In this document: one piece after another, positions 11,331 to 45,000 of the stretch
Position numbering within the stretch: the stretch's first letter is position 1
How the letters are laid out: each line of letters opens with the position of its first letter
Source of the DNA: a virus
Strand: one strand, 5' to 3'
Virus record (IMG/VR): IMGVR_UViG_3300045988_141012
DNA length: 64,000 nt
Position numbers and translations under genes: made by a program
The notes under the pieces: model-generated
Told to the model about the DNA's origin: nothing
The model's input: the letters and a program-made list of their open reading frames with translations, nothing else
Database searches by the model: none

Positions 11331-11414
11331 AACTTTGTCCCCCATTTCTTTGTTTTATTATATCATGAAAGTTTATTTTTAACAAGTTTTGTTGTATGAA
11401 AGGAAGTGATTTTT

Positions 11415-12368
11415 ATGGCAGAACGTGCAAAACGTATACAAATGTATGATGAAAACAAATTTCAAAACATAAATCCCGAAACTCTAAAATTATTTCAAAA
11501 ATATCAGATAGATATGTCTATCCGTGATTTATCTAAAAATACAATTGATGCTTATAATGCAGATTTGAAACAATGGTTTATTTTTATGTACGACCATCAG
11601 TTTAACTTATCTGTTTTAGAGGCAACCGAGGATGATATTACAGAGTATTATTATTGGAGAAAGCAACAAGGTAATAATGTAAATCGGCAAAAGAGGGTTA
11701 TGGCTTCGATTTCGGCATTCTATAAATTTCTTCGAAAAAAGAAACTTATAAGAGAATCGCCGACTGAGTTTATAGATAGACCTAAAGCTGGACAACCCAT
11801 TACAGTGCAAACATATCTTACAAAGGAACAAGTGCAATTAATGAGAGAAAAACTTGAAGAATATGGTGATATTCAATTACAAGCATATGCCTTTCTTTCG
11901 TTAACCACTATGGCACGGGTAAATGCTGTTGCCAATTTAAAATGGAAACAAGTTAATTTAGAAGAGAGAATTTGCACTGACGTTATTGAAAAAGAAGGTA
12001 AAATTGTAGAATTGAGTTTTTCAGTTGAAACAAAAAATTATCTTGAGAATCTGATTCAATATCGCAAGGATAATAATATTGACGACCATGGATGGTTGTT
12101 CATTACACCTTATGTCACCGAAGATAAACCAATACGAAATAGCACGTTGAATGATTGGTGTAAAAAGATTGGTGCGATGATTGACGTTCCTACTCTACAT
12201 GCCCACGATTTCAGGCACAACTACGCCACGCTACTCAAGAACGCCGGCGTAAATTTGGAAGACATTTCCACTATGTTGAATCATGCTGGAACGGATGTAA
12301 CTAAAAAGTTTTACATAAAAACTGACACTACTAAGGTTAGAAAATTAAAAGATAGTATTCAGATTTAA
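11415..12368 (+). CDS. int: tyrosine recombinase / integrase (XerC/D-like)
   Basis: SAM-like N-domain, then a catalytic region with ARVNAV (R), HDFRHNYAT (HxxR) and TKKFY (Y). ATG lies 8 nt after AGGAAG. Confidence 0.85.
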   Translation: MAERAKRIQMYDENKFQNINPETLKLFQKYQIDMSIRDLSKNTIDAYNADLKQWFIFMYDHQFNLSVLEATEDDITEYYYWRKQQGNNVNRQKRVMASISAFYKFLRKKKLIRESPTEFIDRPKAGQPITVQTYLTKEQVQLMREKLEEYGDIQLQAYAFLSLTTMARVNAVANLKWKQVNLEERICTDVIEKEGKIVELSFSVETKNYLENLIQYRKDNNIDDHGWLFITPYVTEDKPIRNSTLNDWCKKIGAMIDVPTLHAHDFRHNYATLLKNAGVNLEDISTMLNHAGTDVTKKFYIKTDTTKVRKLKDSIQI

Positions 12369-29604: not shown

Positions 29605-32600
29605 ATGGCAAATAAAAATGTTGCAATATTGTCTTTAATGGCACAAGCAGACAATAAAAGTATTAAACAAGCTGTTAATAGCATGGATAAGGCATTACAG
29701 TCTGAAGTTGAAGGAAAGTTTAGTTCGATTGGTGATGAAATAGGAAAACAAGCCGAGGATGCACTAAAAATTTTGAACAGAACTACTTTAAAAGATGTCA
29801 AAGTTACACAACCTGTTAGTGATTTCTTTTTAAATATTTTACGATCAACCTCCGCTGACGATGCTTTGAATTATATTACCGATTTTGCAAATAGAATGGA
29901 AGCATTGCATTCGGTTGTAAAGGAAAGTAAGTTTAATGATTTATTAAATCCTTTGTCGGAGAATCAGATATCTAAATTGTTGTCAGAAGTTGATGAGATT
30001 GCAAAACTCAAACAAAACATAGCAAATAGAAAGGCAAATCTTGTCGAATATAGGAAACAAATTATAGACGCAAATCCGGCACAAACAACCCCTGCCAAAG
30101 CACTTAAACCATATGTCAAAAAAGAGTCTGGTTATACTGTTGATAATAATATTTCTCCGGAACTGTCAGATTTTGTTTCGTCAAATATTGATAAATCAAG
30201 TGAAGATATAAATAAAAAAATTCAACAATATCAACTTTTGTTAAATGTTTTTGAAAAGTTAAATCTTGAAAAAAAACATATGTCAGAAGGATCGGAAGAA
30301 TTAGTTGGTTATAATAATCAATTACAATATGTTTATAATCAAATATTAAAGAAAGAAAAGGCAATTCCTAAATTAAAAGAATTTAGAGAGTCTTTGGCAC
30401 AAAGTGATTCTAAATATGATTTTTTTGACAGAGACCTTGAATATTATAAAAATAACACTAGAGATGCAGCTGATGAATATATCAAAAAACAAAATCGCAT
30501 AGATAATAGCACAATCACAGATATTAGGAGTAAATTGATTGACAAAGCCTTTCAATTTAACGAAAGTTCCGTAGCACGTATTAACGCCAAAAGAGAAAAG
30601 GCTGGATTAAATAACGTTGCCAGACAAAGCGATATGAACGATTCATCTGATTCTGATAATTCAGGAACTGATACTGTTGCAGAGTTGACGAAATCTCAAC
30701 AAAGAATAGCTGACATTCTGAAAATGGATTACGATACTGCTTATAAGAAGATGAGGGAGATACATGAGAAGCTTGTAAAAGACGAAGATTATGAACCTGC
30801 AAAAAAAGAACGTGAAGATTTTTTTGCATTATATGATAGACTTAAAACTGAAGCCCCAGATACTAATATGTTCATTAGTGATGGGAAGGATCGGATTGGT
30901 CTTGATGACACATACGACATGATGAGTACTACATATCCGACTCTCAAAGAGAAACAATTAGCTGATATTCAAAAAGTAAAAGATGTGTTGTCCCAAACTA
31001 ATACAGAGATCAATGTAACCAATTCGGAGCTTAATGTAACTGACGAACAACTATCTAATATAAAAAATAAAATATCAGATATTCGTAAATTAAGTAATGA
31101 AGATTTACTGAAAAAAGTTCAAGAGAGTTCGGATAATATTAGGCTTGCAATAGGTAACGGAAAAGATGTTAATGAAGATGACCTTCGTGAGTTTATTGCT
31201 TTAAGAGAACGTTACAATGAATTGCTTGAAAGTGATGAAGTTGGAGAAAGTTATAAAAATAGTCAATCTAGTATAGATAGGACTTTTAATAAAATCATTG
31301 AACAACATAACGCTGATTATGAAGCAATCATTAATCATCAAAAGGAACTTATTCAGGAAATAGAACAAATCACTCCACCAGAAGTCTCGACGAATGATAT
31401 TAAAGAAGATTCTATAAATGAACCCCCTAAAGAATCCTTAAAAGAAAAAACATCCACCCCACAAAATAATCAATCGGAACTACGGGATTTATATTCGAAA
31501 CTTCAAAAGAGCATGATGGATATCGTATTTAAAGAACGCTCGCCACAAGGAGTTGGAGAAGATGACATTCGTGATTTTATTACATCAAGAGAACATTTTA
31601 ATGAATTACTTCAAAGTAGTGATGTTGGAGAAAACTATAAGGATAAAAAATCAAAGATAGACGATTTTTTTAAGAGGATTACTGAACAATATAACATTGA
31701 TTATGAAAAAATTATCAGTCAACAAGAGGAACTTCTTGAAGAAACAAAGCAACTGTCTACCAGTGAAGATTTCAAGGAAGCGTCTAAGGAAAAACCTAAA
31801 GAAGTAATTAAAGAAGAGCCTAAAGAAGCGATCAAAGAAGAAACATTAAATGTCCCAAATGAAAGTTCTGATGTTTCGTCTGAAGCAACTTCTTTTGAAG
31901 GCTTAAAAACCGCAATCACTCAAGTCACTTCGGCAGTAGATAAAAAGACACAGGCATTTAAAGAAGAAGAACAAGTTGTTACTGGTACTGTTCAGAGGGA
32001 GATTAATTCATTAGATGTTTTAATTGGTACATTGGTAACCATTCAAGAACATATAGAAAAAATCAAAGCCTCGGCGACAGAATTACAAAATATTAATATA
32101 GGTAATGTTTCACCTCAACCCAAAACAACTGCAACAGAAAATTCTTCAAACAATAAACCAGAAAAACTTCAAAACGATTTAAAGACAACTCAATCCAATG
32201 CAGAAACACTTAATCAAACCTTAAAAGAAATCAAAGAAAATTCTACTATTTCTATTAAAATAAAAGCACCTGAAGAAGTCACCTCTAAACTTATAACTCA
32301 ACTAGAAGCTTTAAAGAAAATTTTAGATAATGATTGGTTAAGTAAGGTTCAAGAATTATCTAAGCTTAAAGAATTAAAGAATTTAGGCATTACCGACAAG
32401 GCATTGGACAAGTTTAAAAATCTTAAAACTGGTCTTGACGGTATAGTAAAGAGTTTTAATAAGATTAATGATGGTGGTTTTGCTTTCTTAGATAATCTTA
32501 CAATTTTAGCTCAACAAGGCGAAGCTCTTAAAGATTTAACTACTTTGCTTAAAACAAGCCAAAGTCAATTAACAAATGCACGTAATACAGTAAACAATAA

Positions 32601-35139
32601 TAAGAACTTTATTGATGAAGATGTTTATGATAACAATTCGGAGCAATGGTTAAAGGATAATGTTGATGCTTTAAGTAATAATAGCAAATACATAGGGGTT
32701 TTGGATGCTGAAATTTCTCGTGCCTCAAACGGTATGGTTAAATTCACCGCCAATGTAAAAAATGCTAAAAATGAATGGCAAAAATTAAGTGGTACAGTTA
32801 AGGCAGATGGAAGTCTTACTAATATTTCTTTGAAGAACATACAAGGTAAACAAGCGAATAATCTTGACAATGTTCTTAATGGCAATTCTAACACTTCTCA
32901 ACTATCTAATAAGGAAGATATTTTAAAAGATATTGAGAAGTCACTAAAAACGATTTATGATTATCGCGTTAAGATAGCTTCAACTAACGATACTGATACT
33001 TTAAATGATTTACAATCCAAGTTAAGTTCAGAAGAACAACAATACAAGCAATTGGTTGATAATTACAAAACAAATTATTCTGCACACCCAAATGACTTAG
33101 ATGATGACTTTAGAAATGTTGTCAAACCTGTTAAAGTGAAGGGTAGGAAAAATATAAGAGTTGCTAGTGCAGATGCTATTTTAGATAAAATAACAGAGCA
33201 ACAAGCAGAAGTATCAAAGCTTAAAAACCTCGACGGTAGCATATTCAAGTATGAAGGAGACAACTCATTTGATGATTATCTTCAAGACCAAGAAAATAAA
33301 TTAAATGAATTAATAAAAAAATATAAGCAATATGGCGATGTTGTTCAAGATGTTCAGCAAAAGATAGAAGATACAAAAGTAAACGGTTCAAACGAGGGAA
33401 CATCACAAGCAGACACCCTTAGAGCAAACTATGAGTCTGTAAATAAGATACGTGGAGAGCTTAAAAATGGTAATCAACAAGGTTTTCTTGAGCAATATTA
33501 CGTGAGGGCTAACAAGGCTGTCACAAAGTTGATTGGTAAGCAACAACAAGGTGAAGAAATAACAAAAAAAGAACTTCAAAATGTTCAGAGCCTATATAAC
33601 GAGTATAAGAAAATAGCGAATGCCGGCACACCTCTTGCAGACAATATAAGAGGTAAAGTTAATGCCGATAGTTATATCTTAAATAATGCTAAGCAACAAG
33701 GAACTATAATTTCTCAAGGTGAGTTCAAGGAAACCGACATTTCAAAGGGTCTTGCAACTACTATTATTAAAATCCGTAATGCAAAGGGTGAAATTAGAGA
33801 CCTTCAATATACTTGGCATGACGGTATGATTAGCATGGCTGATAATACCAAGAAAGTTCAAACTTCTTTAGTTGGCGTTCCAAAAATTATGGACGCACTT
33901 TCTAAAAAGTCTAAAGAGTTAATTACATATTGGACGGCTAATTACATAAATCCTTATAAGATAATCGAAATGATTCAAAAAGGTGTCAATATTGTAAAGG
34001 AACTTGATACTGCCCTTGTTGACCTTCGTAAGACTACAACAATGTCTTCGACAGATTTGAAAGATTTCTATTCTGATGCTAATGAGGCAGCAAAAGAGTA
34101 CGGCGTTACAACTAAACAGATTATTGATCAAGCAAGTTCATGGAGTAGACTAGGTTATTCAGACAAGAACAGTGCTACAGAAATGGCAAAATTAAGTTCA
34201 CAATTTGCTACTATCTCTCCTGGAATGGATATAGATAAAGCCACAACAGGATTAGTATCTACGATGAAAGCCTTTGACGTTCAAGTAGATGATGTTAAAG
34301 ACGGAATTATGTCAAAGATTAATTCTGTTGGTAATGCATTTGCTACAAGTAATGACGAAATTATTGACGGTCTGGAACGTTCGGCTTCAGCAATGGCTTC
34401 AACCGGTGCAAGTTTGGAAGATACTATTGCTATTTTTACAGGCGGTCAAGAAATCGTACAAAATGCTGAAAGTGTTGGTTCGGCAATGAAAACCTTCTCA
34501 ATGCGTATTAGAGGTATGGATGAAGAAGGTGAAGCCCTTGACGAATTATCAAATGTCAAAGGTGACGTATATGAGCTAACTAACGGTAAAGTTAGTATCA
34601 TGAAAGATGAAAATACATATCGCAGTATTTACGATATTCTAAAAGATATAGCAGGAGTTTGGGACGACATTACTGATAAAAACAAAGCCAAATTACTTGA
34701 AAAATTATTTGCAAAAACAAGAGCAAATACAGGTGCTGCTATTCTTCAAAACTGGGATCAGGTTGAAAAAGCCGTTAAAACAATGGAAGACAGTGCTGGA
34801 AGTGCTGATAATGAAATGAGCATAGCGGCTGATAGTATTGAATTTAAACTAAATAAGCTATCACAAACTTGGGTAAGTTTTGCCCAAGATACTTTATCAC
34901 AAAATTCATTAAAGGGAACGATTTCTCTTTTAACAGGATTATCACAAACACTTACTGGAATTTTGGGTGTAATTCAAAACATCACATCTCTTGGGGGAAT
35001 ATTACCAAGTGGTGGATTGCTTGGAGACTTGGGAATTGCATCTGGCTTTGTGATGAATAAAATGGGTATTGGTAAACGTACAGTTTCAGTGGTAATGTAC
35101 TGTGCCCACCCCTCTAAGATTATGTATAATGTCACATAA
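29605..35139 (+). CDS. tail tape measure protein (unspliced ORF 1844 aa; predicted splice donor after U35096)
   Basis: Long coiled-coil N-half with internal duplications. A TP901-type TMP core follows (DLRKTTTMSSTDLKDFYSDANEAAKEYGVTTKQIIDQASSWSRLGY...AMKTFSMRIRG), then a G-rich hydrophobic segment. The last 14 codons lie in the intron. Confidence 0.8.
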   Translation: MANKNVAILSLMAQADNKSIKQAVNSMDKALQSEVEGKFSSIGDEIGKQAEDALKILNRTTLKDVKVTQPVSDFFLNILRSTSADDALNYITDFANRMEALHSVVKESKFNDLLNPLSENQISKLLSEVDEIAKLKQNIANRKANLVEYRKQIIDANPAQTTPAKALKPYVKKESGYTVDNNISPELSDFVSSNIDKSSEDINKKIQQYQLLLNVFEKLNLEKKHMSEGSEELVGYNNQLQYVYNQILKKEKAIPKLKEFRESLAQSDSKYDFFDRDLEYYKNNTRDAADEYIKKQNRIDNSTITDIRSKLIDKAFQFNESSVARINAKREKAGLNNVARQSDMNDSSDSDNSGTDTVAELTKSQQRIADILKMDYDTAYKKMREIHEKLVKDEDYEPAKKEREDFFALYDRLKTEAPDTNMFISDGKDRIGLDDTYDMMSTTYPTLKEKQLADIQKVKDVLSQTNTEINVTNSELNVTDEQLSNIKNKISDIRKLSNEDLLKKVQESSDNIRLAIGNGKDVNEDDLREFIALRERYNELLESDEVGESYKNSQSSIDRTFNKIIEQHNADYEAIINHQKELIQEIEQITPPEVSTNDIKEDSINEPPKESLKEKTSTPQNNQSELRDLYSKLQKSMMDIVFKERSPQGVGEDDIRDFITSREHFNELLQSSDVGENYKDKKSKIDDFFKRITEQYNIDYEKIISQQEELLEETKQLSTSEDFKEASKEKPKEVIKEEPKEAIKEETLNVPNESSDVSSEATSFEGLKTAITQVTSAVDKKTQAFKEEEQVVTGTVQREINSLDVLIGTLVTIQEHIEKIKASATELQNINIGNVSPQPKTTATENSSNNKPEKLQNDLKTTQSNAETLNQTLKEIKENSTISIKIKAPEEVTSKLITQLEALKKILDNDWLSKVQELSKLKELKNLGITDKALDKFKNLKTGLDGIVKSFNKINDGGFAFLDNLTILAQQGEALKDLTTLLKTSQSQLTNARNTVNNNKNFIDEDVYDNNSEQWLKDNVDALSNNSKYIGVLDAEISRASNGMVKFTANVKNAKNEWQKLSGTVKADGSLTNISLKNIQGKQANNLDNVLNGNSNTSQLSNKEDILKDIEKSLKTIYDYRVKIASTNDTDTLNDLQSKLSSEEQQYKQLVDNYKTNYSAHPNDLDDDFRNVVKPVKVKGRKNIRVASADAILDKITEQQAEVSKLKNLDGSIFKYEGDNSFDDYLQDQENKLNELIKKYKQYGDVVQDVQQKIEDTKVNGSNEGTSQADTLRANYESVNKIRGELKNGNQQGFLEQYYVRANKAVTKLIGKQQQGEEITKKELQNVQSLYNEYKKIANAGTPLADNIRGKVNADSYILNNAKQQGTIISQGEFKETDISKGLATTIIKIRNAKGEIRDLQYTWHDGMISMADNTKKVQTSLVGVPKIMDALSKKSKELITYWTANYINPYKIIEMIQKGVNIVKELDTALVDLRKTTTMSSTDLKDFYSDANEAAKEYGVTTKQIIDQASSWSRLGYSDKNSATEMAKLSSQFATISPGMDIDKATTGLVSTMKAFDVQVDDVKDGIMSKINSVGNAFATSNDEIIDGLERSASAMASTGASLEDTIAIFTGGQEIVQNAESVGSAMKTFSMRIRGMDEEGEALDELSNVKGDVYELTNGKVSIMKDENTYRSIYDILKDIAGVWDDITDKNKAKLLEKLFAKTRANTGAAILQNWDQVEKAVKTMEDSAGSADNEMSIAADSIEFKLNKLSQTWVSFAQDTLSQNSLKGTISLLTGLSQTLTGILGVIQNITSLGGILPSGGLLGDLGIASGFVMNKMGIGKRTVSVVMYCAHPSKIMYNVT

Positions 35140-35545
35140 TTAACGGACGGGAGTGTTAGCCACTTAAAATAATGACAGATACCTTATATGATAAATATAA
35201 AAAACCGAATATGCTGGGAACCCTAAAGACTATATACAATCCAAAACAGAGCTGGAAACAACAGATGGAATGGTGACGAAAGTCGGAAAGAAACGTATAT
35301 AGTATGTTATATGACGAGAGTCTAAGTAACATTTTATGCTTTTATAATAAAGGAATGGGTAGTCAACAGGTAGGCTTATGCCGAAAGCAGGGAAAGACTA
35401 AGTTCTTAATTGAATATTATGTGAGGTCACAACTCATTGTCTTAACCCCCAGAGACTGACAAGGTTTGGCAAAGATACAGACATAATTGTATATTTGCTG
35501 TGAAATACAGTCCGAACCTTGGGAAACCAAGTTGTGTGTAATTAT
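35097..35545 (+). ncRNA. group I intron catalytic core
   Basis: AUGCUGGGAACCCUAAAG (35211-) is a P3/P4-like element shared with the other two introns. The R-like element ACAGACAUAAU is at 35477-35487 and the P8 hairpin at 35488-35509. The S-like element AUACAGUCCGAACC is at 35505-35518 (compare Tetrahymena AUAUAGUCGGACC). A GNRA hairpin CUUGG-GAAA-CCAAG is at 35518-35531. Confidence 0.6.
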
Positions 35546-35596
35546 ATTAATAGCTTCCGAAAATATTAGTATGATTATAATAATTAAATTAAATAT

Positions 35597-35624
35597 ATTG
35601 ACTTTTCACTTAAATGTGATATAA
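35597..35624 (+). promoter_or_regulatory. sigma-A promoter TTGACT-16 nt-TATAAT with TG extension
   Basis: TTGACT at 35597-35602; TGTGATATAAT ends at 35624. Confidence 0.6.
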
Positions 35625-35630
35625 TATTTA

Positions 35631-35754
35631 TAGAAATAAAAAATGTGGAAACCTAAGACGGTTGCCACAACTGATAATGTTTACACTTATTTGAGATTAT
35701 TTAATCTCAATTATAGTGAGCCAATCTGTTGCAGCAGACGGCTCACTTTTTCTT
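35631..35754 (+). ncRNA. ~120-nt small RNA with three hairpins and its own promoter and terminator; antisense to the 3' part of the minus-strand toxin-like transcript
   Basis: Hairpins: TGTGG/CCACA (35644-35669), TTGAGATT/AATCTCAA (35691-35710) and GTGAGCC/GGCTCAC (35715-35745), followed by TTTTTCTTT. No SD-preceded ORF is present. Confidence 0.5.
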
Positions 35755-35837
35755 TATAATCGCTATTATGTCTTTTATAATTTGATAAATCAAACTTAAA
35801 ATACCACAAATAGCAGCTATATTTACTAAAGTAATTA
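35742..35837 (-). CDS. 31-aa hydrophobic peptide ending KKK (type I toxin-like); AUA/AUU start
   Basis: Minus-strand GAAAGGAGG (35853-35845), then 7 nt, then ATA ATT ... giving (M)ITLVNIAAICGILSLIYQIIKDIIAIIKKK. The stop lies inside the bidirectional hairpin. A minus-strand terminator (hairpin 35669-35644 followed by T-rich TTTTTTATTTCT) lies further downstream. Confidence 0.4.
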
Positions 35838-36087
35838 TGTATCAGCCTCCTTTCAAGAAAATTTCTCGTCAAGAGCTTATACACAGCCTCCATTCCGCTC
35901 AAGCGAGATGAAAGGCAACCGTCATAAACCGTCATACCGTCTACAAAGATGGAGAAAACTCAACTGTATGACGGTATGATTTCCACAACATTATTATATC
36001 AAATTCAACATTAACTGTCAATATATTCTTGTTTGAGCGTATTTTCGGATACGTTCTTTTTGTATGTAACTAAATCATAATAACAAC

Positions 36088-36116
36088 TTTACAACTTATT
36101 TACAATTATTTATAAT
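36088..36116 (+). promoter_or_regulatory. promoter TTTACA-17 nt-TATAAT
   Basis: -35 at 36088-36093 and -10 at 36111-36116. Confidence 0.45.
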
Positions 36117-36163
36117 GTATTGCTATATAATGCCATATATTATATAATTATAGAGAAAACATT

Positions 36164-36373
36164 ATGAAAAAGGATGAGATAAAAATGTATGAATTAACTG
36201 AACAAAAGAAGAATGATATATCTGTCTACGGTATTAAATATGGGAATTTGCAGATAGATGATATATCTGCCGATAAGGATAGGGTTAAAAAATTTGTTAA
36301 CGATATAAATAAGTATCAACTCTCCCCTATTCATTTGGGTGATGTTGTAGAGGATTTTGTGGCGAGTATGTAA
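36164..36373 (+). CDS. small hypothetical protein (69 aa; alternative start 36185)
   Basis: ISADKDRVKKFVNDINKYQLSPIHLGDVVEDFV resembles small DUF6514-type clostridial proteins (recollection, low certainty). AAGGATGAG precedes ATG 36185. Confidence 0.5.
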   Translation: MKKDEIKMYELTEQKKNDISVYGIKYGNLQIDDISADKDRVKKFVNDINKYQLSPIHLGDVVEDFVASM

Positions 36374-36412
36374 TTAAAAATTATCAAAATAAAGTTAAAT
36401 ATTGCATTTTTC

Positions 36413-36441
36413 TTGTAAATATTTTATCTTTGTGATATAAT
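36413..36441 (+). promoter_or_regulatory. promoter TTGTAA-17 nt-TATAAT (TGTGATATAAT)
   Basis: -35 at 36413-36418 and -10 at 36436-36441. Confidence 0.55.
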
Positions 36442-36478
36442 ATTGTTAGATTTTATCGAAAACAAGGAAGTGGATATT

Positions 36479-37216
36479 ATGGCAACTGATAACGAATACA
36501 TATTATTTTTAGATGAAACTGACACTAATGAATCTAACCAATACTTTTGTTTGGCTGGTTTTATTATTAGTAGACAAGAATATGAAAATATTTTAATTCC
36601 TCAAATTAACGAATTAAAAATGAATATATTAAATTTGCCTCATGTCGTTTTTCATTATAAAGATATGAGACAACAAGATAAGGATTTCAAAATTTTAGAT
36701 AATAGTAAATTAAGAGATAATTTTTGGCGAAAATTATGTAATATATTAAAAAATATAAATATAACTACACTCGCTGCATATATTGATGGTGTTAGTTACC
36801 GAAAAAATTATTCTAAAAATATCGCATTATCAGAGTACAATGTTTTATTTAATGAAATAATTAATTCTTTTGTAAATTTTTTACTTAAGAATAATGGAGA
36901 TGGAACTATTATCGTAGAGAGTAGGAATTTGACACAAAATAGAAGCACGCAAAAGTTATATACCACAATGACTCAAACAGGCACTAACATTTATCTTCCG
37001 ACAACAATAAAGAGAAAGATTTCAACTTTGAATTTTAACATAAAAAAAGATAATTGTATAGGACTTCAGATTGCAGATATGATACCTTTGGTTTTGGTTC
37101 GTCGTATTCATGGCAAGTCTAATCCTTATACTTTATATAATATTTTTAGTTCTAAATTGTATAAAAACAATCAATCTTCGGTTGATGGTTATGGTTTTAT
37201 AAAAGTTTTAAGATAA
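36479..37216 (+). CDS. DUF3800-like protein
   Basis: N-terminal YILFLDETDTNES...FCLAGFII (YIDESG-type motif) and C-terminal LQIADMIPLVL. ATG 36479 follows AAGGAAGTGG. The track's TTG 36443 sits immediately after the -10 box (36436-41), at or upstream of the expected TSS. Confidence 0.5.
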   Translation: MATDNEYILFLDETDTNESNQYFCLAGFIISRQEYENILIPQINELKMNILNLPHVVFHYKDMRQQDKDFKILDNSKLRDNFWRKLCNILKNINITTLAAYIDGVSYRKNYSKNIALSEYNVLFNEIINSFVNFLLKNNGDGTIIVESRNLTQNRSTQKLYTTMTQTGTNIYLPTTIKRKISTLNFNIKKDNCIGLQIADMIPLVLVRRIHGKSNPYTLYNIFSSKLYKNNQSSVDGYGFIKVLR

Positions 37217-37220
37217 TTTA

Positions 37221-37249
37221 TTGACAAATATCATATAATATGATATACT
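37221..37249 (+). promoter_or_regulatory. promoter TTGACA-17 nt-TATACT
   Basis: -35 at 37221-37226 and -10 at 37244-37249 (TGATATACT). Confidence 0.55.
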
Positions 37250-37262
37250 TTCATTGTAGATA

Positions 37263-37322
37263 AGAACGGTGTAACTGTCGCTTATTTACGTTTCTTGTGT
37301 ATAGAACGGTGTAACTGTCGCT
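37263..37322 (+). repeat. two perfect 20-nt direct repeats AGAACGGTGTAACTGTCGCT, 40 nt apart, plus a third GGTGTAAC core at 37356-37363
   Basis: Copies at 37263-37282 and 37303-37322. They lie in a transcribed leader between a promoter and a terminator. Confidence 0.8.
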
Positions 37323-37350
37323 ATATGTAAGTCATGAAATGGAGGTAGAG

Positions 37351-37404
37351 ATGATTGGTGTAACCATGATTCTCATAATAACAAACGGCAAAGGTCACGG
37401 TTAA
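37351..37404 (+). CDS. 17-aa leader peptide candidate MIGVTMILIITNGKGHG
   Basis: GGAGGT lies 5 nt before the ATG, and the stop codon sits inside the terminator loop. Confidence 0.3.
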   Translation: MIGVTMILIITNGKGHG

Positions 37405-37425
37405 TACCGTGGCTTTTGTTGTTTT
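37394..37425 (+). terminator. intrinsic terminator / attenuator
   Basis: GGTCACGG-TTAATA-CCGTGGC followed by TTTTGTTGTTTT. Confidence 0.6.
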
Positions 37426-37461
37426 GCGTTTGAAAATATTTTTTAAAATTGTCATATTTTG

Positions 37462-37490
37462 TTGAAATATATATACTTTCTTGATATAAT
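37462..37490 (+). promoter_or_regulatory. promoter TTGAAA-17 nt-TATAAT (TGATATAAT)
   Basis: -35 at 37462-37467 and -10 at 37485-37490. Confidence 0.55.
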
Positions 37491-37527
37491 ACAATAAAGT
37501 AAAATTATCAAGGATGGTTTGGCTAAT

Positions 37528-38394
37528 ATGAAGAAAAAGAGTTTTATAAGGATATTGTTGTTGTATTTACTGTTTTATGTGATTTTAAGTTCAATATTTG
37601 TTGTCATTTATAGTATTAATGCCGATGACGACATACCATTAAAAGAATTGATTATGTTTTCATTTGCAAAAAGCGTAAATTGCTCGTTAGATTCCCCTAT
37701 TACAATTTCTAATAATATAATTATGATAATTCAAAGTATAATCAGTCAACTAGGTATGGCAGTTTTAACGGCATATTTACTATGTAGCATATTTAATGTT
37801 AGCGGAGACAATGTTCAATTATTGGATACTATGATTATTAGGGATCGTGGCATAAATGGTATATCTCCATGCGTAATGGTTCTTAATAAAAATAAAGATT
37901 GTATATATAATATTAAATGTACTGTGCGTATTTTAAAATTTGATAAATCCATTACCAGACATCAAGGACACCCATTGTATAGAACAAAATTATTAAATGA
38001 AATAGAATTAAATGCTATAGAAATTGAAAATTATTATCGTTTCTCATTTTCAATAGATAGTCTTCCAACAGAAATATGGGCAGATATTGTAGAGTTTCAA
38101 AATAATAACAAGGATAATATAGCTGTTAATTATCCTTGGAAAATATCAGTAGTAATTACCGGCGTTTTAAATAATTATGGTGGAAACTTTTTAATAAAAA
38201 GAAATTACACAATTAATGATATTTCAATAGCTAAAGGCACTGAACCAATTAATTCCATTAAGTATGTAAATGGACAATTTGTAAAAACAAAATGTAATTG
38301 GAACAATGCTGAAATTATACAAGAATACGAGTATCCAGAAAAGCTTAGAATAATTCAAGAAATTAAGAATTACATAAGTAAAAGTCACAAATAA
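37528..38394 (+). CDS. membrane protein: two TM helices flanking a short re-entrant-like segment, plus a ~190-aa soluble beta-rich domain (ion-channel-like architecture)
   Basis: TM1 is IRILLLYLLFYVILSSIFVVIYSI and TM2 is IIMIIQSIISQLGMAVLTAYLLCSIF. The layout resembles 2-TM (Kir-type) channels, but there is no GYG filter. ATG 37528 lies 10 nt after AAGGATGG. Confidence 0.55.
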   Translation: MKKKSFIRILLLYLLFYVILSSIFVVIYSINADDDIPLKELIMFSFAKSVNCSLDSPITISNNIIMIIQSIISQLGMAVLTAYLLCSIFNVSGDNVQLLDTMIIRDRGINGISPCVMVLNKNKDCIYNIKCTVRILKFDKSITRHQGHPLYRTKLLNEIELNAIEIENYYRFSFSIDSLPTEIWADIVEFQNNNKDNIAVNYPWKISVVITGVLNNYGGNFLIKRNYTINDISIAKGTEPINSIKYVNGQFVKTKCNWNNAEIIQEYEYPEKLRIIQEIKNYISKSHK

Positions 38395-38460
38395 TTAAGT
38401 TCGCCGGCAATTATGGCTTATTTTTGTAGAATGACATTTGTTAAAGATAATAATGATACA

Positions 38461-38496
38461 AAAGACTTACCTCTTAATGAGATAAGTCTTTTTTGA
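38461..38496. terminator. bidirectional terminator between convergent genes
   Basis: AAAGACTTA (38461-38469) pairs with TAAGTCTTT (38483-38491), followed by TTTT. Confidence 0.6.
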
Positions 38497-38500
38497 TGCA

Positions 38501-38965
38501 TCAGAACTTACACCCACATTTATTACACTTATAAGTCTTACCCAAGTCCCCTGCCCCGAAGATACCGAACAAGCCTATCTTCCCTGCTTTTGAAAGATTT
38601 GATATTTTTGATAAGTCTGTGCTGTTGCAGTGTGGACAGTGAGGCAAGCCGGATTGCAATTCTGCAATCTTTGCGTCGTGTTGTTTTTCAAATTGTAAAT
38701 ATCGTGTTCTATATTCAATGATATCATCTTTGCGAAGTTTAACCATTGCTTCTATGAATTCAGGGTCTTTGGTTTGTCCCCAAAGAATCATAAATTCACT
38801 ATCCGGTATATCAACAGGCTCTCCCTCGCAATGATGTTTAGGACAAATTCTTGGTGGAACTTCCCAGTTGGATTCTTTGCAAAATTCTTCGCTTAATTTC
38901 CTAAAGAAACCATCACCCGTCTCTTCTTTACACTTAGGACAAAAGAGTACAATATGCGTTTCCAT
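38501..38965 (-). CDS. double zinc-ribbon protein (154 aa), opposite strand, G+C-richer than its surroundings
   Basis: CPKC...CPKHHC near the N-terminus and CPHCNS...CNKCGCKF at the C-terminus. Minus-strand GGGAGG lies 7 nt before the ATG. Confidence 0.65.
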   Translation of the reverse strand: METHIVLFCPKCKEETGDGFFRKLSEEFCKESNWEVPPRICPKHHCEGEPVDIPDSEFMILWGQTKDPEFIEAMVKLRKDDIIEYRTRYLQFEKQHDAKIAELQSGLPHCPHCNSTDLSKISNLSKAGKIGLFGIFGAGDLGKTYKCNKCGCKF

Positions 38966-39074
38966 AATTATACCTCCCTATGATTTTTATTGTTATCTAC
39001 ATTATATACCAAAAGACGGTGTATTTCAAGTATAATTTACCAATAGTTATCGGAAGTAACTATTCAGAATTAAA

Positions 39075-42000
39075 TTGGCAGTACAATACAATTCTGAAAA
39101 AGGTAAAATATATTATCCTTGGAAACAAGCAATAAAATCACTTGGAGCTAAACCACGTACTGAAATCACACAAGAAGAAATTGATTGGTGGGACGACGAG
39201 ACTAATAGTCCCAAAGAGGTTCAGGCTCATCTAAAGGGTCAGCCAAAAGAAAAACAAGCCGAAATTCTTGAATCGTACAAAATTCCAACTAAAGAGTTAG
39301 AGAAGTTTGTTACAGCACAAGAACATGCCAATGATGGCGTTGAAGAATATAAAGCCGCACTTGCTGCCGCAGGCAATCAAGGTTCAAAGTTCGGTGGTAT
39401 AGTAAAGAGTATCGGTGCAAGCCTTGCAAGTGCCGGTATTAATATGCTTATAGGCATAGGCATTGACTTACTTATCAAGGGCATTGATAAAGCAATTCAT
39501 TATAGCGAAGATTTGAGAAAAGCTTCTACGGAATTGACTAATCAGTATAAAGAAGAACAAGAATCTTTAGATGATAGTCGTCAAAGTTATGAAGAATTAG
39601 CTCAAAAAATGCAGAATGCTAATTTGACAACTGATGAAGTCAAATCAAACAAAGAAGAACTTTCAAAAATTCAACAAGACCTTATAGACAAATTTGGATT
39701 AGAAGCTGAAGGAATTGACCTTGTTAATGGTAAATACGACGAGCAAATAAAGAAACTTGATGAAATTGAAAGACAAAAAGCTAAAGATTATGTCCGTAAT
39801 GAACAAGGCAATATCGGTGCAGACAAAGATAAAATTAATAAACAAAAAAAAGTTACTACAAGACAACCAATATACGGCATATTTACTGACAATTTATTGA
39901 CTGATGCATTACCATCACTTCAAAAATCAGTATCTTTGAATACACCGACTGTTTTTTATTCAGTAAAAGGGAATATTGGTGATTTATATGAAGAACTAAC
40001 AAATGCTTATGATAAAATTGCCAAAGAAAAGGGCATAAATGAACAAACACAGGATTCTTTAGATGTAATTAATAAGTTAATAAATGGCTTAAAATATGAT
40101 GATTATGCACAATCTTTGAATAATATAAAGGAATATTCAAAAGCACTTGTGTTATCAAATAATAATTATTATGATGTTTATACAGATTTACAAAATGCTA
40201 TAAATGATTATAATACTGCATTGCAAAGTGGGGAAAATATAGATCAAGCATTTGATAACTTAACAAGAATTCAAAATAAAGTTACTTTAATCACTCAAGG
40301 TGCGGATGATGCGAAATATGCTTTTGATGATTTATTGGATAGTATTGATAGAGGTAGTGAAACCGACCACAAGATAAAAGTAGGTCTTGAAACCAATAAA
40401 GATGAAGTTCAAAATATTCTACAAAGCTTTAAAGACAACGGAGTAAAGACAACAGACCTTTTTGACATTGATATAAATGCAGACGATACTAACATTCCTG
40501 AAATTCAGCAACAATTTAAAGATTTATGTCGCATATTAGGTATCACTCAAGATGAAGTAGACACTTTACTTACAAAGCTATCAGATGACAATGTTATCAT
40601 TGACATTGACAGCGAAGCGAAATCAGTTTCAGATTTTACAAAGAATGTTACTGATTTGACTACAAGTATAAGGAAGACAGAGCGGTCTTGGAAATACTAT
40701 GCTCAAATCGCAGACGTTGTAAACGGTAAGACTGCTATGACTGATGAACAAATGTCTGATTTGGTTAAAGAATTTCCTGATTTAAAGAAAAAGTTAAAAC
40801 TTACAACTGAGGGTTGGTCTTTGGAATCAGGTGCAATGGACGTTGTTCAAAATGGTATTGCTGACCTACAATCTGCATATTTAAATGCACAAATTGATAT
40901 GTCAAATGGTGCATATAATGCAATGATGGCTCGTGTTGGTACTAATATGGAAGAATTGAATCAAATCCAAAATATTAGTCAGGCATATGCTATTCTTGCT
41001 CGTAATTGGGGTAATACAAAATCACTTGCAGTCATCAATACTAATGGCAAAAATGTTATTGATACAAGTAACTTGAGTACGGATGAACAGTTTGTCGTCC
41101 AATATGCTACTATGCAAATTGCATCAAAAAAGGCAAAGGACAGACTTAAAGCTGCTAATTCTTTAGGGTCTGATGACAATGAAAAGAAAAAAGATTCGGC
41201 GAAGAGAACTTATGATAAAAAGGTTAAAGAAATCAACGAGAAACAATATGATGCTGATTTCAAATATCAAATTGATACTGTAACAAATGCTTTAAAAGCC
41301 TATACAGAACAAGTTGAAGCCTTAAAAACTGCATATGACGGTTTATATGAAAAAGATTATTCCGGTAAAATGGATTTGCTTAATCAGAGGTACTTGGTTC
41401 AGACTCAATATGCTCAAAGATTACATCAAGAATTAGATAGTTTAATAAATTCAGTTCCTGAAACCTCATCTTCTTGGTCGGAATTAGCTTCTACTCTTGA
41501 AACAGTATCAAATGATTACTTCGAAGCTCAGAAAAATCTTATAGAATATCGTGATACAATTTACGAAACATCCATTGATTCAATAAGCGACTCTGCAAAA
41601 GGTATTGTTGACCAAGTTAAAAATGCTAAAAGTTTGTTGGATAATTCTTTTGATTATCTCAAAAATGGTTCTTTAGCAGGCGACGGTCTTTGGTCTACTC
41701 CCCTAACACCTTCTGTTTCAAAAGATAAGGTTTCTCAAGAACGAGCAGACAAGAAAAAGTTATTAGAGGAAGAAAAGAAATATCAAAATAAGATTCAAGA
41801 AATTCGTCAACGTGCAACAAAAGAAGCAAAGGATTATGATGATGCACAACGTCAAGAAGAATTACAAGACGCTTTAGACGATTACAATAGTGCTATTGAA
41901 CAAGCAACTGCTTCTGCAACGGCGGCATATACGGATTTTAACGATAGTTGGTACGAGGATACCAAGCTTACTCTTGATGAATTACAACAGTATTTTGATG

Positions 42001-45000
42001 AACACGGCATTAATATCAAACTTAATGTAAAAACTGCCGAAGAATTAGAACAAGAAGCTCAAGAAAAAGCACAAGAAGAAGGTACCAGCATTATAGATAA
42101 GACTGAGGGCAATAGTTTTTCTAATGTTAAAAGTCTTTCATCAGATAAAGCTAAATTCTATAATGACATTGCAAAAGGCAAATCAAGTGTAAAAGCAAGT
42201 GATATAAAGAATAGTATTGATGGAATTCCATTAGACGCAAAAATTAAGCGTGACGGTCATATTTATCGTGGTGATGAAGATTTAGGTACTTGGGGTGTTT
42301 CAAATCACAAGTTTGTATACGCTGAAAAGTATGCCAAAGGCGGTACAACATCACAAGGACTTACAATCACAGGTGACGGTACGGGAGTATATGCAGGACA
42401 AGAAGCGTATATAGGACAAGACGGCAAACTTCATCTATTCAATAATGAAGCACAACTATCTGAATTACCTCCGAATACTCGCATTGTCAATGCAAAAGAC
42501 TTGCAGAATATCATTAAATATACTGGTATGAAGTATTTTTATCAGCCTATTGAAAATATTCAATCTGCAACGGTTGATAAGTTTGCACAAGGCAATACAA
42601 ATGTTTCATTCTCCCCTATTCCATATAATACATTGTCTACTCAAACATTGTATTCAGATGTTAACGTACAAGCAATGGTTGAAGAGACTATTGCGGAAAT
42701 CAACAATGAGTTTAATGCTTTAAAAGGCAATATAAAATTTAGTGCGGTACAAACTGCATTCAAGAACAGTCTGACTGATAAGAAGATGTACAAAGACTTA
42801 TCAAACACTATTGTTAATATGACATCGCAGTCGCTTGACAAAGCTGATAAGAGTACACTTTCAGATTCGGTTGTTGGACTTATTTTGCAAAATTCAGTTT
42901 GGAATGATTTACCGAATGAATTGCAGAATAAATTGTCTGAATTGAATGTAAATGCAGATAATTGGACTGATTGGATACAAGACTCAAATAATTCACTTCA
43001 AGCATTTAACCTAATGCAAGATGGTGGAATGAGTAGTTGGGATTTGCTTGATAGCAACGTAACTTCTCTGTTACAACAAGCAGGTATTAATGGCAAAGAC
43101 GCTTGGGATAAATTTGTACAAGATGACCCACTACAAGCATTGACTTTGTTATCATCTTCTTGGAATAGTATGAATGATACTATTGGGCAATATATGACAG
43201 ATGCTCAAACCATTGCTGCCAATGGGGCAAGAGCTATTCAATCACTACAAATAATTGCACCGTCTATATCGGAGCAATCTTGGAACGCATTGCAAGTATT
43301 GATTGCTAATAAGATACAAGAAATCATATCATTAATGAATGAAGTGTTTGGTGAAAATACAGTTGATATGAACTTTGCTATCAATGTGGGCGGAAGTTTA
43401 CAAGGAAATGCACAGACTAACCCGCAAGGCGAAAGTGCGGTAGTCGATTCTGCCCGTAAGTATCTTGGAACACCTTATGTTTGGGGTGGTACTTCTCCAT
43501 CTGGTTTTGATTGTAGCGGATTTGTACAATATGTATTAGCTGAAAATGGTAAATCAGTGCCGAGAACTTCTCAAGAACAATTTGCGTCAGGTCAAGCTGT
43601 TGATAAAAGTAATCTTCAAGCTGGTGACTTAGTGTTCTATAATTGGAGTGGAGGAACAGAAGCAACCCATGTAGGAATATATGAAGGCAATGGTAAGATG
43701 ATTCACGCACCGCATCCAGGCGATGTTGTCAAGGAAGTTGACTTTAATTCTTACGGTCAAAATGTTTATCTTGGTGCAAGACGTTATTATAAAGGTACTG
43801 AGGGTGCATTGCCTGGACTTGCTAAACTCGGTGATGAAGCAGAAGTAAGAGGATTAAACTATCCTACACCTGAAATTCTTATCAGACAAAAGACAGGTAA
43901 AGCATATCTTACTGGTTTAGATGGCACACAGATTGTTAATCTTGACAGAGGTGATACAGTTATCCCTTATGCCGATACAAAGCGAATTTTAAACGGCAAT
44001 GTACGTCATGCTTATGCTAATGGTACACCAAATGCAAAAGACGCTATATCAAGGATTTTAGGCATAAACAATGTCAAGAATAGAGTGAATAACGGCTCTG
44101 CAAGAAGTAATAATTCGGGTATAACAAATAATACAGTTCAACAATCGTGGGATACAAATGATTTCGGACAAGGCGTAGGTAAGTCACATTCATATACCGC
44201 TTTTGACGAAAATGGATATTTGGGTTCATCGCTTGGATATTGGGATACAAGTTCAAGTGCTTGGAAACTATTTAAGAAGTTGTTGGATAGCGGTGATTTA
44301 TCAACCGATGAGAATGGCATCTATACATATAAAGGTGCTCGTCTTGTAGCAATGACATCTACTTTTGGTAAGCCTGGAGATGTTATGAGATACACTCAAG
44401 ATGACGGTAGTGTATTTTACGGTATCATAATGGACGAGAAGTCGCAAGCATATACTTGGTACGATAATAACCCTGCCAACAAGTGGGGTCATAACAACGG
44501 ACAAGATATGGTTGAATTTGAAGTTAAGAAATCAGCGATTGCTCCTGCTTATAAAGCTAACGGTGGTACTCCTCCATATGGTAATCTAAATCATGCGATT
44601 ACTTTAATTGAGAATTTAGGTTCGTTGGAAGGCTTTGATTTTTCTGATATGCCTTCTGTCGGCGGAACTTCTGTATTAACTCAAAAAATGCAAGAGTTTA
44701 TGTCTAAGCTTCAACAAGTTTATGGTACATTCAAGACTAATACTCATACATCGGCTACTAAGGTCGGCAATGTAAAGTCTTTAGGTGACAAAAAGCAAAG
44801 TAGTTATAGCTTTGATGTACCATTTACTCAAAGAGAAAAAGGTGGCATTGCTCCTGCTGGAACAGTTGTATTAGGTAATGAATATCGTAGGACTGAAGCA
44901 ACTATTGACGAAAAAGGTAATGTTGTTCCATTGGGTGACGGTACTCCACAAGTATTTGTTTCTGACAAGCCATTCCCTGTTATTAACGCTGATGACTATG

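Follow-up and report, generated by a model that had tools for sequence, protein, structure and literature searches.

The locus at positions 35592–36027 of the window, the 64,000-nucleotide stretch of viral DNA analysed here (IMG/VR record IMGVR_UViG_3300045988_141012), is probably, with roughly two chances in three, a type I toxin–antitoxin-like module of the convergent, 3′-overlapping class represented by txpA/RatA, bsrG/SR4 and bsrE/SR5. The sequences compared show directly how the module is built, that it is conserved, and that shared flanks link it to a TxpA/BsrG-family module. The element appears to be of an ordinary kind with two unusual features, namely a conserved AUU start codon and the exchange of unrelated toxin peptides on the same RNA scaffold in sister phages. 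A preliminary description of this DNA had already proposed a type I-like pair with a convergent 3′ overlap as in txpA/RatA and bsrG/SR4, and this proposal is supported by about 40 contigs, by allele swaps, and by the membership of one sister allele (allele C) in the Hol_Tox family. The module consists of the following parts:

35592–36027, both strands: whole module, 436 bp, with an 11-bp perfect inverted repeat at its ends
35993–36021, minus strand: toxin-strand promoter, TTGACA at 36021–16, 17-nt spacer, TG-extended TATAAT at 35998–93
35836–35986, minus strand: predicted 5′ leader of the toxin mRNA, whose transcription would start near G35986
35854–35846, minus strand: Shine–Dalgarno sequence GAAAGGAGG, followed by the 7-nt spacer CTGATAC
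35743–35835, minus strand: candidate toxin ORF of 30 codons plus stop, AUU at 35835–33, (M/I)TLVNIAAICGILSLIYQIIKDIIAIIKKK, TGA at 35745–43
35636–35742, minus strand: toxin-mRNA 3′ UTR containing three hairpins; the final one (35669–35644) and UUUUUUAUUUCU make up the terminator
35598–35625, plus strand: antisense-RNA promoter, TTGACT at 35598–603, 16-nt spacer, TG-extended TATAAT at 35620–25
35632–35757, plus strand: antisense small RNA of ~120 nt and putative antitoxin, with hairpins at 35644–69 and 35691–710 and a terminator at 35715–47 followed by a U-tract

On the minus strand, the Shine–Dalgarno sequence, its 7-nt spacer, the triplets ATA ATT and an ORF lacking both ATG and GTG all lie where they had been described, and the in-frame TTG reported in mid-ORF is indeed there, one nucleotide away from its first assignment (35793–35791, not 35792–35790). 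The open frame, which translates as IITLVNIAAICGILSLIYQIIKDIIAIIKKK, follows an in-frame TGA at 35844–42, includes the ATA at 35838–36 in the sequence of the window, and ends with an AAG codon at 35748–46 immediately before its TGA. For the ORF and its UTRs, the comparison comprised 20 distinct sequences of this allele (A) and of a sister allele (B), 15 of them belonging to allele A. The GGAGG core of the Shine–Dalgarno sequence is invariant in the 20 distinct modules, and AUU, located 9–10 nt from it, is in frame in all of them. Since a 1-nt indel between the Shine–Dalgarno sequence and the ORF, present in both the A and the B backgrounds, places AUA outside the reading frame in 13 of these 20 sequences, AUU is the sole start that is in frame throughout. 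Thus, from the weak AUA/AUU start originally proposed, AUU (35835–33) is retained as the most likely start codon of the putative toxin, and AUA, being out of frame in most variants, has been rejected.

Within allele A, the ORF is intact and without indels in 15/15 distinct sequences, and its variable codons hold five synonymous and three conservative (I/L/V) changes, which is a small count (8 changes). A single open frame of 31 codons is not rare in such AT-rich DNA, where the chance of its staying open is ~6% by our own estimate, so the case depends on the comparative data. As judged from these comparisons, the ORF appears to be a genuine coding sequence under selection, equipped with a ribosome-binding site and a non-canonical start (AUU). 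The 30-residue peptide has a GRAVY of 1.46, a best 17-residue Kyte–Doolittle window of 2.21 and a KKK end, and it fits the profile of fewer than 60 residues, hydrophobic character, a single predicted transmembrane helix and charged residues at the C-terminus. The codons of its KKK tail are, however, the reverse complement of the U-tract of the antisense-RNA terminator, which means that the lysine tail is partly forced by that terminator and is weaker evidence for a toxin than it appears.

Because it has no canonical start codon, the locus would escape every gene caller. A 74-aa ORF (35711–35935) had been noted to lie in another frame without a Shine–Dalgarno sequence, and this is confirmed; its lack of conservation follows from the length of the frame that opens at its ATG in the different variants, which is 3, 27, 63 or 74 aa. 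Neither this ORF nor the 63-aa fused ORF of the relatives (P0001) was accepted as a real gene, in view of this variation (3–74 aa), the missing Shine–Dalgarno sequence and the overlap with the structured leader.

The plus strand encodes the second component. As previously described, a TTGACT promoter precedes a ~120-nt RNA with three hairpins and a good terminator; the promoter agrees with the consensus at 11 of 12 positions and has the TG extension, and the RNA fold (35630–35765) reaches a minimum free energy of −37.4 kcal/mol, with z = −5.0 and 0/200 shuffles as good. The −35 and the extended −10 boxes are kept in relatives, in which the spacer varies (TTGACTTTTCACTTAAATG, TTGACAATATAACTAAATG or TTGACAAATGTACTAAATG). 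The complementarity of this RNA to the toxin mRNA is complete and spans the 3′ UTR, the stop codon and roughly the last four codons. The minus-strand terminator, with its hairpin followed by the T-rich TTTTTTATTTCT, lies at the position given for it earlier, and the ~110-nt overlap of the 3′ ends estimated at that time is predicted here to be ~119 nt (35636–35754). The locus is therefore predicted to hold a gene for an antisense RNA that has a separate promoter and terminator and overlaps the toxin mRNA. An ATG-initiated ORF of 38 aa inside the small RNA was rejected, because it lacks a Shine–Dalgarno sequence and relatives carry 1-nt indels there.

The promoter of the toxin strand is a perfect sigma-70-type promoter (12/12 consensus positions plus TG) and, in inverted orientation, repeats the antisense promoter almost exactly. 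The same 29-nt string recurs unchanged in all related modules, even where the toxin is a different one. This promoter, the ~150-nt structured 5′ leader behind it and the complementarity between the KKK tail and the U-tract had been overlooked in the preliminary description. The predicted mRNA measures ~350 nt, of which the leader makes up ~150 nt. Folds, the inverted repeats I2, I3 and I7 and the direct repeat D1 together outline this leader, which contains a hairpin at 35975–35928, a pseudo-Shine–Dalgarno sequence GGAAUGGAGGCUG at 35895–84, a hairpin that would sequester the true Shine–Dalgarno sequence (unpaired probability 0.18), and the segment GACGGUUGCC (35923–14), predicted to pair with the 3′ UTR at 35666–57. 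In addition, the 3′ arm of the terminator hairpin (35653–45) is predicted to pair with the 5′ end of the mRNA (35986–78).

The mRNA of allele A, with this helix between its 5′ and 3′ ends and its Shine–Dalgarno sequence buried in a hairpin, folds far better than its shuffled versions (z = −9.4), and the same is found for alleles B (z = −10.4) and C (z = −7.3). The end-to-end helix and a second long-range helix are predicted in the mRNAs of all three alleles, and allele C forms both with compensating changes (AUAGGG/CCCUAU in place of GUGG/CCAC, and UUACC/GGUAA in place of UUGCC/GGCAA). This comparison was aligned by eye and sets allele C against A/B only; within alleles A and B both helices are invariant and consequently yield no covariation signal.

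The strength of these folds lends itself to a different explanation, in which no peptide is made and the locus encodes two structured non-coding RNAs that overlap, or just one such RNA read from either strand, the ORF being a by-product of AT-rich and T-rich sequence. Both strands fold far better than shuffles (z = −8.7 and −8.25), and the ORF, as mentioned, is a single frame of unexceptional length with no canonical start. Nevertheless, three unrelated sequences fill the slot in different phages, each of them open for 28–31 codons from a codon proximal to the Shine–Dalgarno sequence and each encoding a hydrophobic helix that is basic at its end; the lengths of alleles A and B, measured between fixed flanks, are exactly 3 nt apart; and allele C belongs to a recognised protein family. 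One-sided changes in relatives preserve the leader pairs as G-U on the minus strand only, which favours an mRNA-like minus-strand RNA but leaves the integrity of the ORF unexplained by this alternative. An RNA-only locus is accordingly regarded as very unlikely.

The type I reading draws on a wide set of relatives. The same cassette is present in ~40 related contigs from IMG/VR and human-gut metagenomes, with conservation of the ORF and of the promoter and terminator on either strand. The 11-bp inverted repeat that brackets the module (AATATATTGAC / GTCAATATATT) contains both −35 boxes, and where relatives carry the module in another genomic setting, the conserved sequence extends leftwards to 35571–35593. 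A neighbouring DUF6514 gene was considered as an obligatory partner of the module and rejected, as a distant DUF6514 homologue (contig L034) has no module adjacent to it.

In sister phages, two other small hydrophobic peptides with basic, K-rich C-termini occupy the slot. Allele B (ITSLFFGICTIIDTVVNVMALVLYICDRNKK) shares the promoter, leader, Shine–Dalgarno sequence and AUU of allele A and has its stop at the same TGA, inside the terminator stem. Allele C (MVTYSDLFEFGLLIIAVISFCFNINKKN) starts with ATG; behind an identical toxin promoter it carries a separate leader, and its convergent antisense promoter and terminator are likewise distinct. As the entire overlap region is common to A and B, the A-type antisense RNA would be expected to protect against allele B but not against allele C. 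The three peptides show no pairwise similarity, and all are hydrophobic, of ~30 residues and basic at the C-terminus. Allele C matches the Pfam family PF16935 (Hol_Tox) with 29.2 bits against a cut-off of 23.3, and the sequences that we take to be those of BsrG and TxpA match it with 34.5 and 31.3 bits, respectively. For the window peptide and allele B, no match to PF16935 was found even at E-values of up to 10, so the window peptide does not detectably belong to the TxpA/BsrG family, and the module appears to be related to a TxpA/BsrG-type module via its shared flanks and not via its peptide.

The preliminary description had suggested comparing the peptide with type I toxin families; no family match to the window peptide was found in Pfam, NCBIfam, PHROGs or the PDB; a hit to DUF5963 (E = 0.016) was dismissed because it falls below the cut-off of that family. 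A phmmer search of 1.84 billion proteins recovered solely a 63-aa fused-ORF call of the same phage clade, and tblastn with the three peptides against 50,697 GenBank phage records found nothing; these searches used a 30-aa hydrophobic query of poor sensitivity with the low-complexity filter on. At the nucleotide level, megablast and blastn against GenBank phages yielded just trivial AT-rich, promoter-like matches and none to the module, no Rfam family was detected at the locus at gathering or permissive thresholds, and neither the toxin promoter string nor the neighbouring DUF6514 protein matched any of 185,579 species-representative genomes. Within these searches, the window peptide is without a detectable homologue outside its own phage clade.

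The same comparative data bear on the possibility that the toxin has been disarmed. Because a canonical start codon is absent from all 20 A/B variants, an ancient inactivating mutation would fit as well: a former ATG may have been silenced by a change to ATT, with the small RNA being kept, for example, as an anti-addiction antitoxin against the related toxins of competing phages. Sister allele C does use ATG, and truncated A-type antisense genes without their toxin half are maintained, one adjoining the allele-C module (contigs L021/L010) and others in contigs L085 and L088. Moreover, the ORF tolerates the insertion of an IS200/IS605 element in some phages (two distinct contigs, L031/L011 and L026/L036), although these insertions may also be taken as a circumstantial hint of toxicity. 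A dead ORF, however, should have gained stops and frameshifts, given a stop probability of ~8.6% per random codon (our own estimate), whereas in 20/20 distinct sequences, which represent two unrelated alleles, the frame is open from AUU to the same TGA without any indel or stop, in spite of the many UTR indels that are common just outside it. The perfect Shine–Dalgarno sequence and the toxin promoter are invariant too. Disarmament is thus considered improbable.

The genomic setting is that of a phage tail region. The tape-measure gene of this phage is split by a 3.9-kb insert (35140–39075) that contains the module; the two flanking ORFs cover positions 603–937 and 961–1734 of PHROG 4211, so that the exons are continuous, and more distant relatives carry both halves in one frame. 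The module may be intron cargo, as had been described, but no intron signature was found at the edges of the insert, and in other relatives the same cassette sits outside the tape-measure gene. Likewise, no Rfam intron matched in 34950–39200, and the insert has no similarity to the group I intron that Rfam detects in relatives.

The neighbours of the cassette are phage tail genes and variable accessory genes, a setting that would also suit a regulated but non-toxic small membrane protein, involved in lysis timing as a holin or antiholin or in superinfection exclusion, whose level would be tuned by the antisense RNA without any role in addiction or abortive infection. The Pfam text for the related family reads "putative holin-like toxin", prophage "holtox" genes of unknown function occur in streptococcal prophages (PMC11357604), and some candidate type I toxins, such as YhzE-2, are harmless when overproduced (PMC2887945). 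Nonetheless, the architecture of the locus, with two strong convergent promoters, the ~119-nt 3′ overlap, a buried Shine–Dalgarno sequence and a closed mRNA, is that of proven type I pairs (PMC3531473, PMC5848175), and a lysis gene would not be expected to carry such translational repression or a near-cognate start. A non-toxic function is therefore held to be unlikely.

Under the favoured type I reading, we infer that both RNAs are made and that the peptide is translated from AUU and is toxic, with the participation of RNase III. The strong constitutive promoter at 36021–35993 would produce the ~350-nt mRNA, which folding predictions suggest to be closed: the 5′ end would pair with the terminator 3′ arm, the second leader segment would pair with the terminator 5′ arm and loop, and the Shine–Dalgarno sequence would be held in its local hairpin. 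The AUU start would further limit translation of the 30-residue single-helix membrane peptide. The near-identical promoter on the opposite strand (35598–25) would give rise to the ~120-nt antisense RNA, perfectly complementary to the mRNA 3′ UTR, stop and last four codons; by analogy with RatA, SR4 and SR5, RNase III would cut the duplex and keep the toxin mRNA low. If the element were lost or its transcription stopped, the balance would shift and the peptide could damage the membrane.

A bolder version, which is possible yet rather doubtful, holds that AUU is a functional gate and not a defect, and that the locus is a fixed RNA scaffold that accepts unrelated, swapped toxins as a modular and exchangeable addiction or exclusion cassette. 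If AUU acts as a gate, the toxin would be made only once start-codon discrimination relaxes or the closed mRNA opens, and the trigger could be a competing phage or a stress perturbing host translation or RNA decay. If the scaffold reading is true, it would comprise two mirrored promoters, a self-closing mRNA and a 3′ antisense RNA, with toxins exchanged by recombination among gut phages and the cassette also moving between genomic sites, including the insert that splits the tape-measure gene.

If real, the module would add two new types of toxin peptide, those of alleles A and B, from large, uncultured human-gut phages, as well as a toxin that keeps its AUU start in all A/B variants. It would also constitute a natural experiment with three unrelated toxins on one regulatory RNA scaffold, by which the requirements of RNA control and those of the peptide could be separated, and a sequence set for asking how 3′-binding antisense RNAs act on a 5′–3′-closed toxin mRNA.

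In a literature search, no report of a type I toxin starting with AUU or another non-canonical codon was found. The gene for IF3, infC, is controlled through an AUU initiation codon behind a good Shine–Dalgarno sequence. The AUU of the module also follows a good Shine–Dalgarno sequence, which would make translation inefficient and sensitive to IF3-mediated discrimination; the likeness is only an analogy.

Among type I systems, the closest counterparts are txpA/RatA from the skin element of Bacillus subtilis, and bsrG/SR4 and bsrE/SR5 from the SPbeta and P6 prophage regions, with which the module shares a small single-helix peptide with a basic C-terminus, a location on a phage, and a structured toxin mRNA with a paired Shine–Dalgarno sequence (predicted in the present case). 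The txpA mRNA, of ~270 nt, overlaps RatA by ~120 nt, compared with ~119 nt here, and undergoes RNase III-dependent degradation (PMC3531473). SR4 is a bifunctional antitoxin, and yonT/SR6 resembles the module in its extended −10 promoters (PMC5848175). Sister allele C, at the same locus, falls with TxpA and BsrG in PF16935, whereas the window peptide has no similarity to TxpA, BsrG or allele C and starts with AUU. The module also departs from these systems in its short antisense RNA (~120 nt), which lies almost wholly inside the overlap, and in an mRNA whose 5′ and 3′ ends are predicted to pair and so close it.

Clostridioides difficile phages commonly carry type I toxins that are hydrophobic at the N-terminus and rich in lysine at the C-terminus; these toxins measure 30–56 aa, are often unannotated and exist in many variants across phages (PMC7699646, PMC6563280). 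The prophage pairs CD0977.1-RCd11 and CD0956.2-RCd10 are, like the present module, phage-borne, convergent and overlapping, with a hydrophobic toxin N-terminus; phmmer found no homologue of the window peptide beyond its own clade, as already noted for a 30-aa query of poor sensitivity.

The systems hok/Sok (from plasmid R1), aapA1 and dinQ have no sequence relationship with the window module. Nonetheless, the full-length toxin mRNA of the module, predicted to be closed between its 5′ and 3′ ends with its Shine–Dalgarno sequence sequestered, recalls the fold-back inhibition of hok/Sok and the inert full-length mRNAs of aapA1 and dinQ, primary transcripts that are not translated as such (PMC5416894, PMC5066626). 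Unlike in these systems, no processing step is known for the module, and its antisense RNA would target the 3′ end of the toxin mRNA, itself one strand of the closing helix, and not the 5′ leader.

The 436-bp locus at 35592-36027 is best read as a functional type I toxin-antitoxin-like module, a reading to which we assign a probability of roughly two thirds. The convergent, 3'-overlapping pair that the preliminary description had likened to bsrG/SR4 and txpA/RatA is supported by a conserved ORF, by allelic replacement, and by the family of one of the alleles. Both the anatomy of the module and its conservation are shown, and the elements needed here are the following:

35598-35625, plus strand: antisense promoter, TTGACT, 16 nt, TG-TATAAT (11/12 match in the promoter scan)
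36021-35993, minus strand: toxin promoter, TTGACA, 17 nt, TG-TATAAT (12/12 match in the promoter scan)
35854-35846, minus strand: Shine-Dalgarno sequence (SD) GAAAGGAGG, followed by CTGATAC, ATA (35838-36), and ATT (35835-33)
35844-42, minus strand: in-frame stop TGA, closing the toxin frame just 5' of the start region
35748-46 and 35745-43, minus strand: last codon (AAG) and stop (TGA) of the toxin ORF

The best promoter of the region, overlooked in the preliminary description, is the minus-strand one, from which a toxin mRNA of ~350 nt with a leader of ~150 nt is predicted. The plus-strand promoter and the three-hairpin RNA ending in a terminator, both already proposed, were recovered by the promoter scan and by folding, respectively: the RNA (35630-35765) holds three predicted hairpins, the last being a strong terminator (35715-47 plus the U-tract), and has a minimum free energy of -37.4 kcal/mol vs -21.0 +/- 3.3 for shuffles (z = -5.0). 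Since either promoter is an inverted copy of the other, with repeats that take in the -35 boxes (arms 35592-602/36017-27, 100% complementary; arms 35610-26/35992-36008, 88%), the module is mirror-symmetric at its ends.

The toxin ORF, whose product is IITLVNIAAICGILSLIYQIIKDIIAIIKKK, has neither ATG nor GTG in its frame, and its sole in-frame TTG is found at 35793-91, one nucleotide away from where it had been placed; the remaining features of the preliminary description lie at the positions it gave. Its KKK tail (AAAGAAAAAG) corresponds, in reverse complement, to the U-tract of the antisense terminator, and the stop codon falls within the stem of that terminator. In an alignment of 20 distinct module sequences, carrying either the window-type peptide (allele A) or that of some sister phages (allele B), the ORF is free of indels and stops in 20/20, and indels are numerous in the leader, linkers, and U-tracts. 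The variable codons of allele A comprise five synonymous and three conservative (I/L/V) changes. A 1-nt indel lies immediately 5' of ATT among these variants: in copies with the extra A (the window, the related contigs L022 and L061, and allele B in most cases) the two triplets ATA and ATT share the frame, and in those that lack it (the majority for allele A, a single one for allele B) ATT is alone in frame. Of the weak AUA/AUU start suggested earlier, AUU is therefore retained in all 20 variants, at 9-10 nt from GGAGG, and AUA is lost from the frame wherever the extra A is absent. On this sequence evidence, we take the 30-codon ORF as the coding unit, with initiation probably at AUU. An upstream ATG ORF, corresponding to the annotated 74-aa ORF in the window and to a 63-aa fused ORF (P0001) in some relatives, was rejected as the gene, as it is not conserved and measures 3, 27, 63, or 74 aa across variants.

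The strongest evidence is the allelic replacement at the putative toxin slot. Allele B keeps the same 29-nt promoter, leader, SD, and ATT, followed by a wholly different 31-codon ORF (ITSLFFGICTIIDT[V/I]VNVMALVLYI[C/F]DRNKK) that terminates at the same TGA. A third version, allele C, is present in the contigs L021/L010, L076, and L077, where the same promoter precedes another leader, an SD, and an ATG-started ORF of 28 codons (MVTYSDLFEFGLLIIAVISFCFNINKKN); a convergent promoter of its own (TTGACA...TGTGATATAAT) is present, and the terminator likewise overlaps the lysine codons. No pairwise similarity was found among the three peptides, each of which has ~30 residues, a single hydrophobic helix, and a basic terminus. 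Allele C scores above the cut-off of Pfam PF16935 (Hol_Tox), as do BsrG and TxpA in what we take to be their sequences, which places this allele in the TxpA/BsrG family of type I toxins. The window peptide, for which a similarity search against toxin families had been proposed, matches neither a toxin family nor any other entry in Pfam, PHROGs, NCBIfam, or PDB; among 1.84 billion proteins, its sole match is an ORF called as a fusion within its own clade.

The predicted mRNAs of alleles A, B, and C (-121.4, -128.1, and -80.2 kcal/mol; z = -9.4, -10.4, and -7.3) are all far more stable than shuffles, and share a plan consisting of two long-range helices and an SD held in a local hairpin. In the first helix, the mRNA would pair at its extreme 5' end with the terminator 3' arm (35986-78 with 35653-45), and in the second, the leader segment GACGGUUGCC (35923-14) with the 5' arm and loop (35666-57). 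The predicted unpaired probability of the SD is 0.12-0.18, whether the 3' overlap is masked or not. Both helices are invariant within alleles A and B, and hence uninformative there, but allele C, as read by eye, keeps them through changes on both strands (GUGG/CCAC to AUAGGG/CCCUAU; UUGCC/GGCAA to UUACC/GGUAA). One-sided changes in the leader hairpin among relatives keep the pairs, as G-U, on the minus-strand RNA only. The leader stretches of these two helices duplicate the halves of the first hairpin of the antisense RNA, so that the mRNA would pair its own 3' end with the bases that the antisense RNA would use. The leader also contains a pseudo-SD (GAAUGGAGGCUG, 35884-35895), a 92% direct repeat of the SD region (GAAAGGAGGCUG, 35843-35854) on the minus strand, which pairs with CCUUUC in the predicted fold; CCUUUC could instead pair with the real SD, and this alternative pairing is a possible switch.

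The module lies in a large, low-GC phage with portal, terminase-like, and tail proteins, which may be temperate in view of its integrase-like and anti-repressor-like ORFs:

148-846, plus strand: anti-repressor-like ORF
6780-7367, plus strand: full-length ROOL RNA in the early region (Rfam RF03087, 355 bits vs a cut-off of 99.1, E = 2.4e-81)
11406-12368, plus strand: tyrosine integrase-like ORF (PHROG 1, E = 3.8e-47)
29605-35139: ORF with the first half of the tape-measure gene (PHROG 4211 positions 603-937)
39075-45398: ORF with the second half (PHROG 4211 positions 961-1734)
36164-38965: module neighbours, including a DUF6514 ORF (69 aa) and a DUF3800 ORF (257 aa)
Module neighbourhood: 291-aa ORF, hydrophobic in an N-terminal stretch, without a family match
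Module neighbourhood, minus strand: zinc-ribbon ORF (154 aa)

Both tape-measure halves share one frame in more distant relatives, and are split in the window by a 3.9-kb insert (35140-39074) holding the module, DUF6514, DUF3800, the membrane-protein ORF, and the zinc-ribbon ORF. This insert, previously regarded as intron cargo, has no Rfam intron match within it or at its edges, and does not resemble the group I intron that Rfam detects in relatives. PADLOC defence models gave no convincing match for the module neighbours, and the stretch 36400-38460 is exchanged for other DNA in relatives. Other relatives carry the module and DUF6514 as a cassette (35571-36373) at another genomic site, so that it behaves as its own unit. 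Separately, many relatives hold in the tape-measure gene, at window ~34272, an extra insertion of ~517 bp that the window lacks (3589-4107 in the contig L017). Its identity is 78% to a group I intron that Rfam detects elsewhere in L022, in a different gene (4161-4550, RF00028, 50.6 bits), itself absent from L029 and thus polymorphic for presence.

By exact-pattern scanning, about 20 IMG/VR contigs (30-158 kb) and 25 contigs from human-gut metagenomes were found to carry the module; no match to the module was found in GenBank phages, nor, despite the possible temperate lifestyle, to the promoter string or a DUF6514 relative in 185,579 species-representative bacterial genomes. In L031/L011 and L026/L036, the allele-A ORF is split by an IS200/IS605 element (TnpA and TnpB; a 92-aa Y1 transposase ORF and a 403-aa TnpB-like ORF), inserted at the equivalent of window 35778/35779, between codons Q-I and I-K (3911-5616 in L031). 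Another mobile element, whose ends are inverted repeats (GACCCCCAAAAGTTAGAC/GTCTAACTTTTGGGGGTC), apparently has its two junctions in L038 (about 290-377) and L088 (about 1-60), contigs from one metagenome sample; it seems to be inserted within the loop of the shared terminator hairpin, parting the toxin from the antisense gene. Next to allele C lies an A-type antisense gene that is truncated and lacks the toxin half. These insertions and the truncated copy are compatible with loss of the gene being tolerated or favoured, and are not proof of toxicity.

Every functional step of the mechanism proposed here is inferred. Two strong convergent promoters would produce a toxin mRNA that is closed and poorly translatable, and an antisense RNA of ~120 nt complementary to the last ~119 nt of that mRNA. 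As in txpA/RatA, bsrG/SR4, and bsrE/SR5 (PMC3531473, PMC5848175), the duplex would, by analogy, be cleaved by RNase III and decay. The AUU start together with the buried SD would hold residual translation very low. Upon loss of the antisense supply, the membrane peptide would accumulate.

The predicted geometry and sizes agree with those of the Bacillus prophage systems, among them txpA/RatA, with an mRNA of about 270 nt and an overlap of about 120 nt (PMC3531473). Phages of C. difficile commonly carry type I toxins whose N-terminus is hydrophobic and whose C-terminus is rich in lysine (PMC7699646, PMC6563280), so this kind of system is already known. Like hok, the module has a predicted 5'-3' closure of the mRNA, but its antisense RNA would bind the 3' end. 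Unlike the known systems, the window peptide has no detectable family, and the module has a conserved AUU start codon, no AUU-start type I toxin being reported in a full-text literature search; it also differs from them in that three unrelated putative toxins are exchanged on one scaffold.
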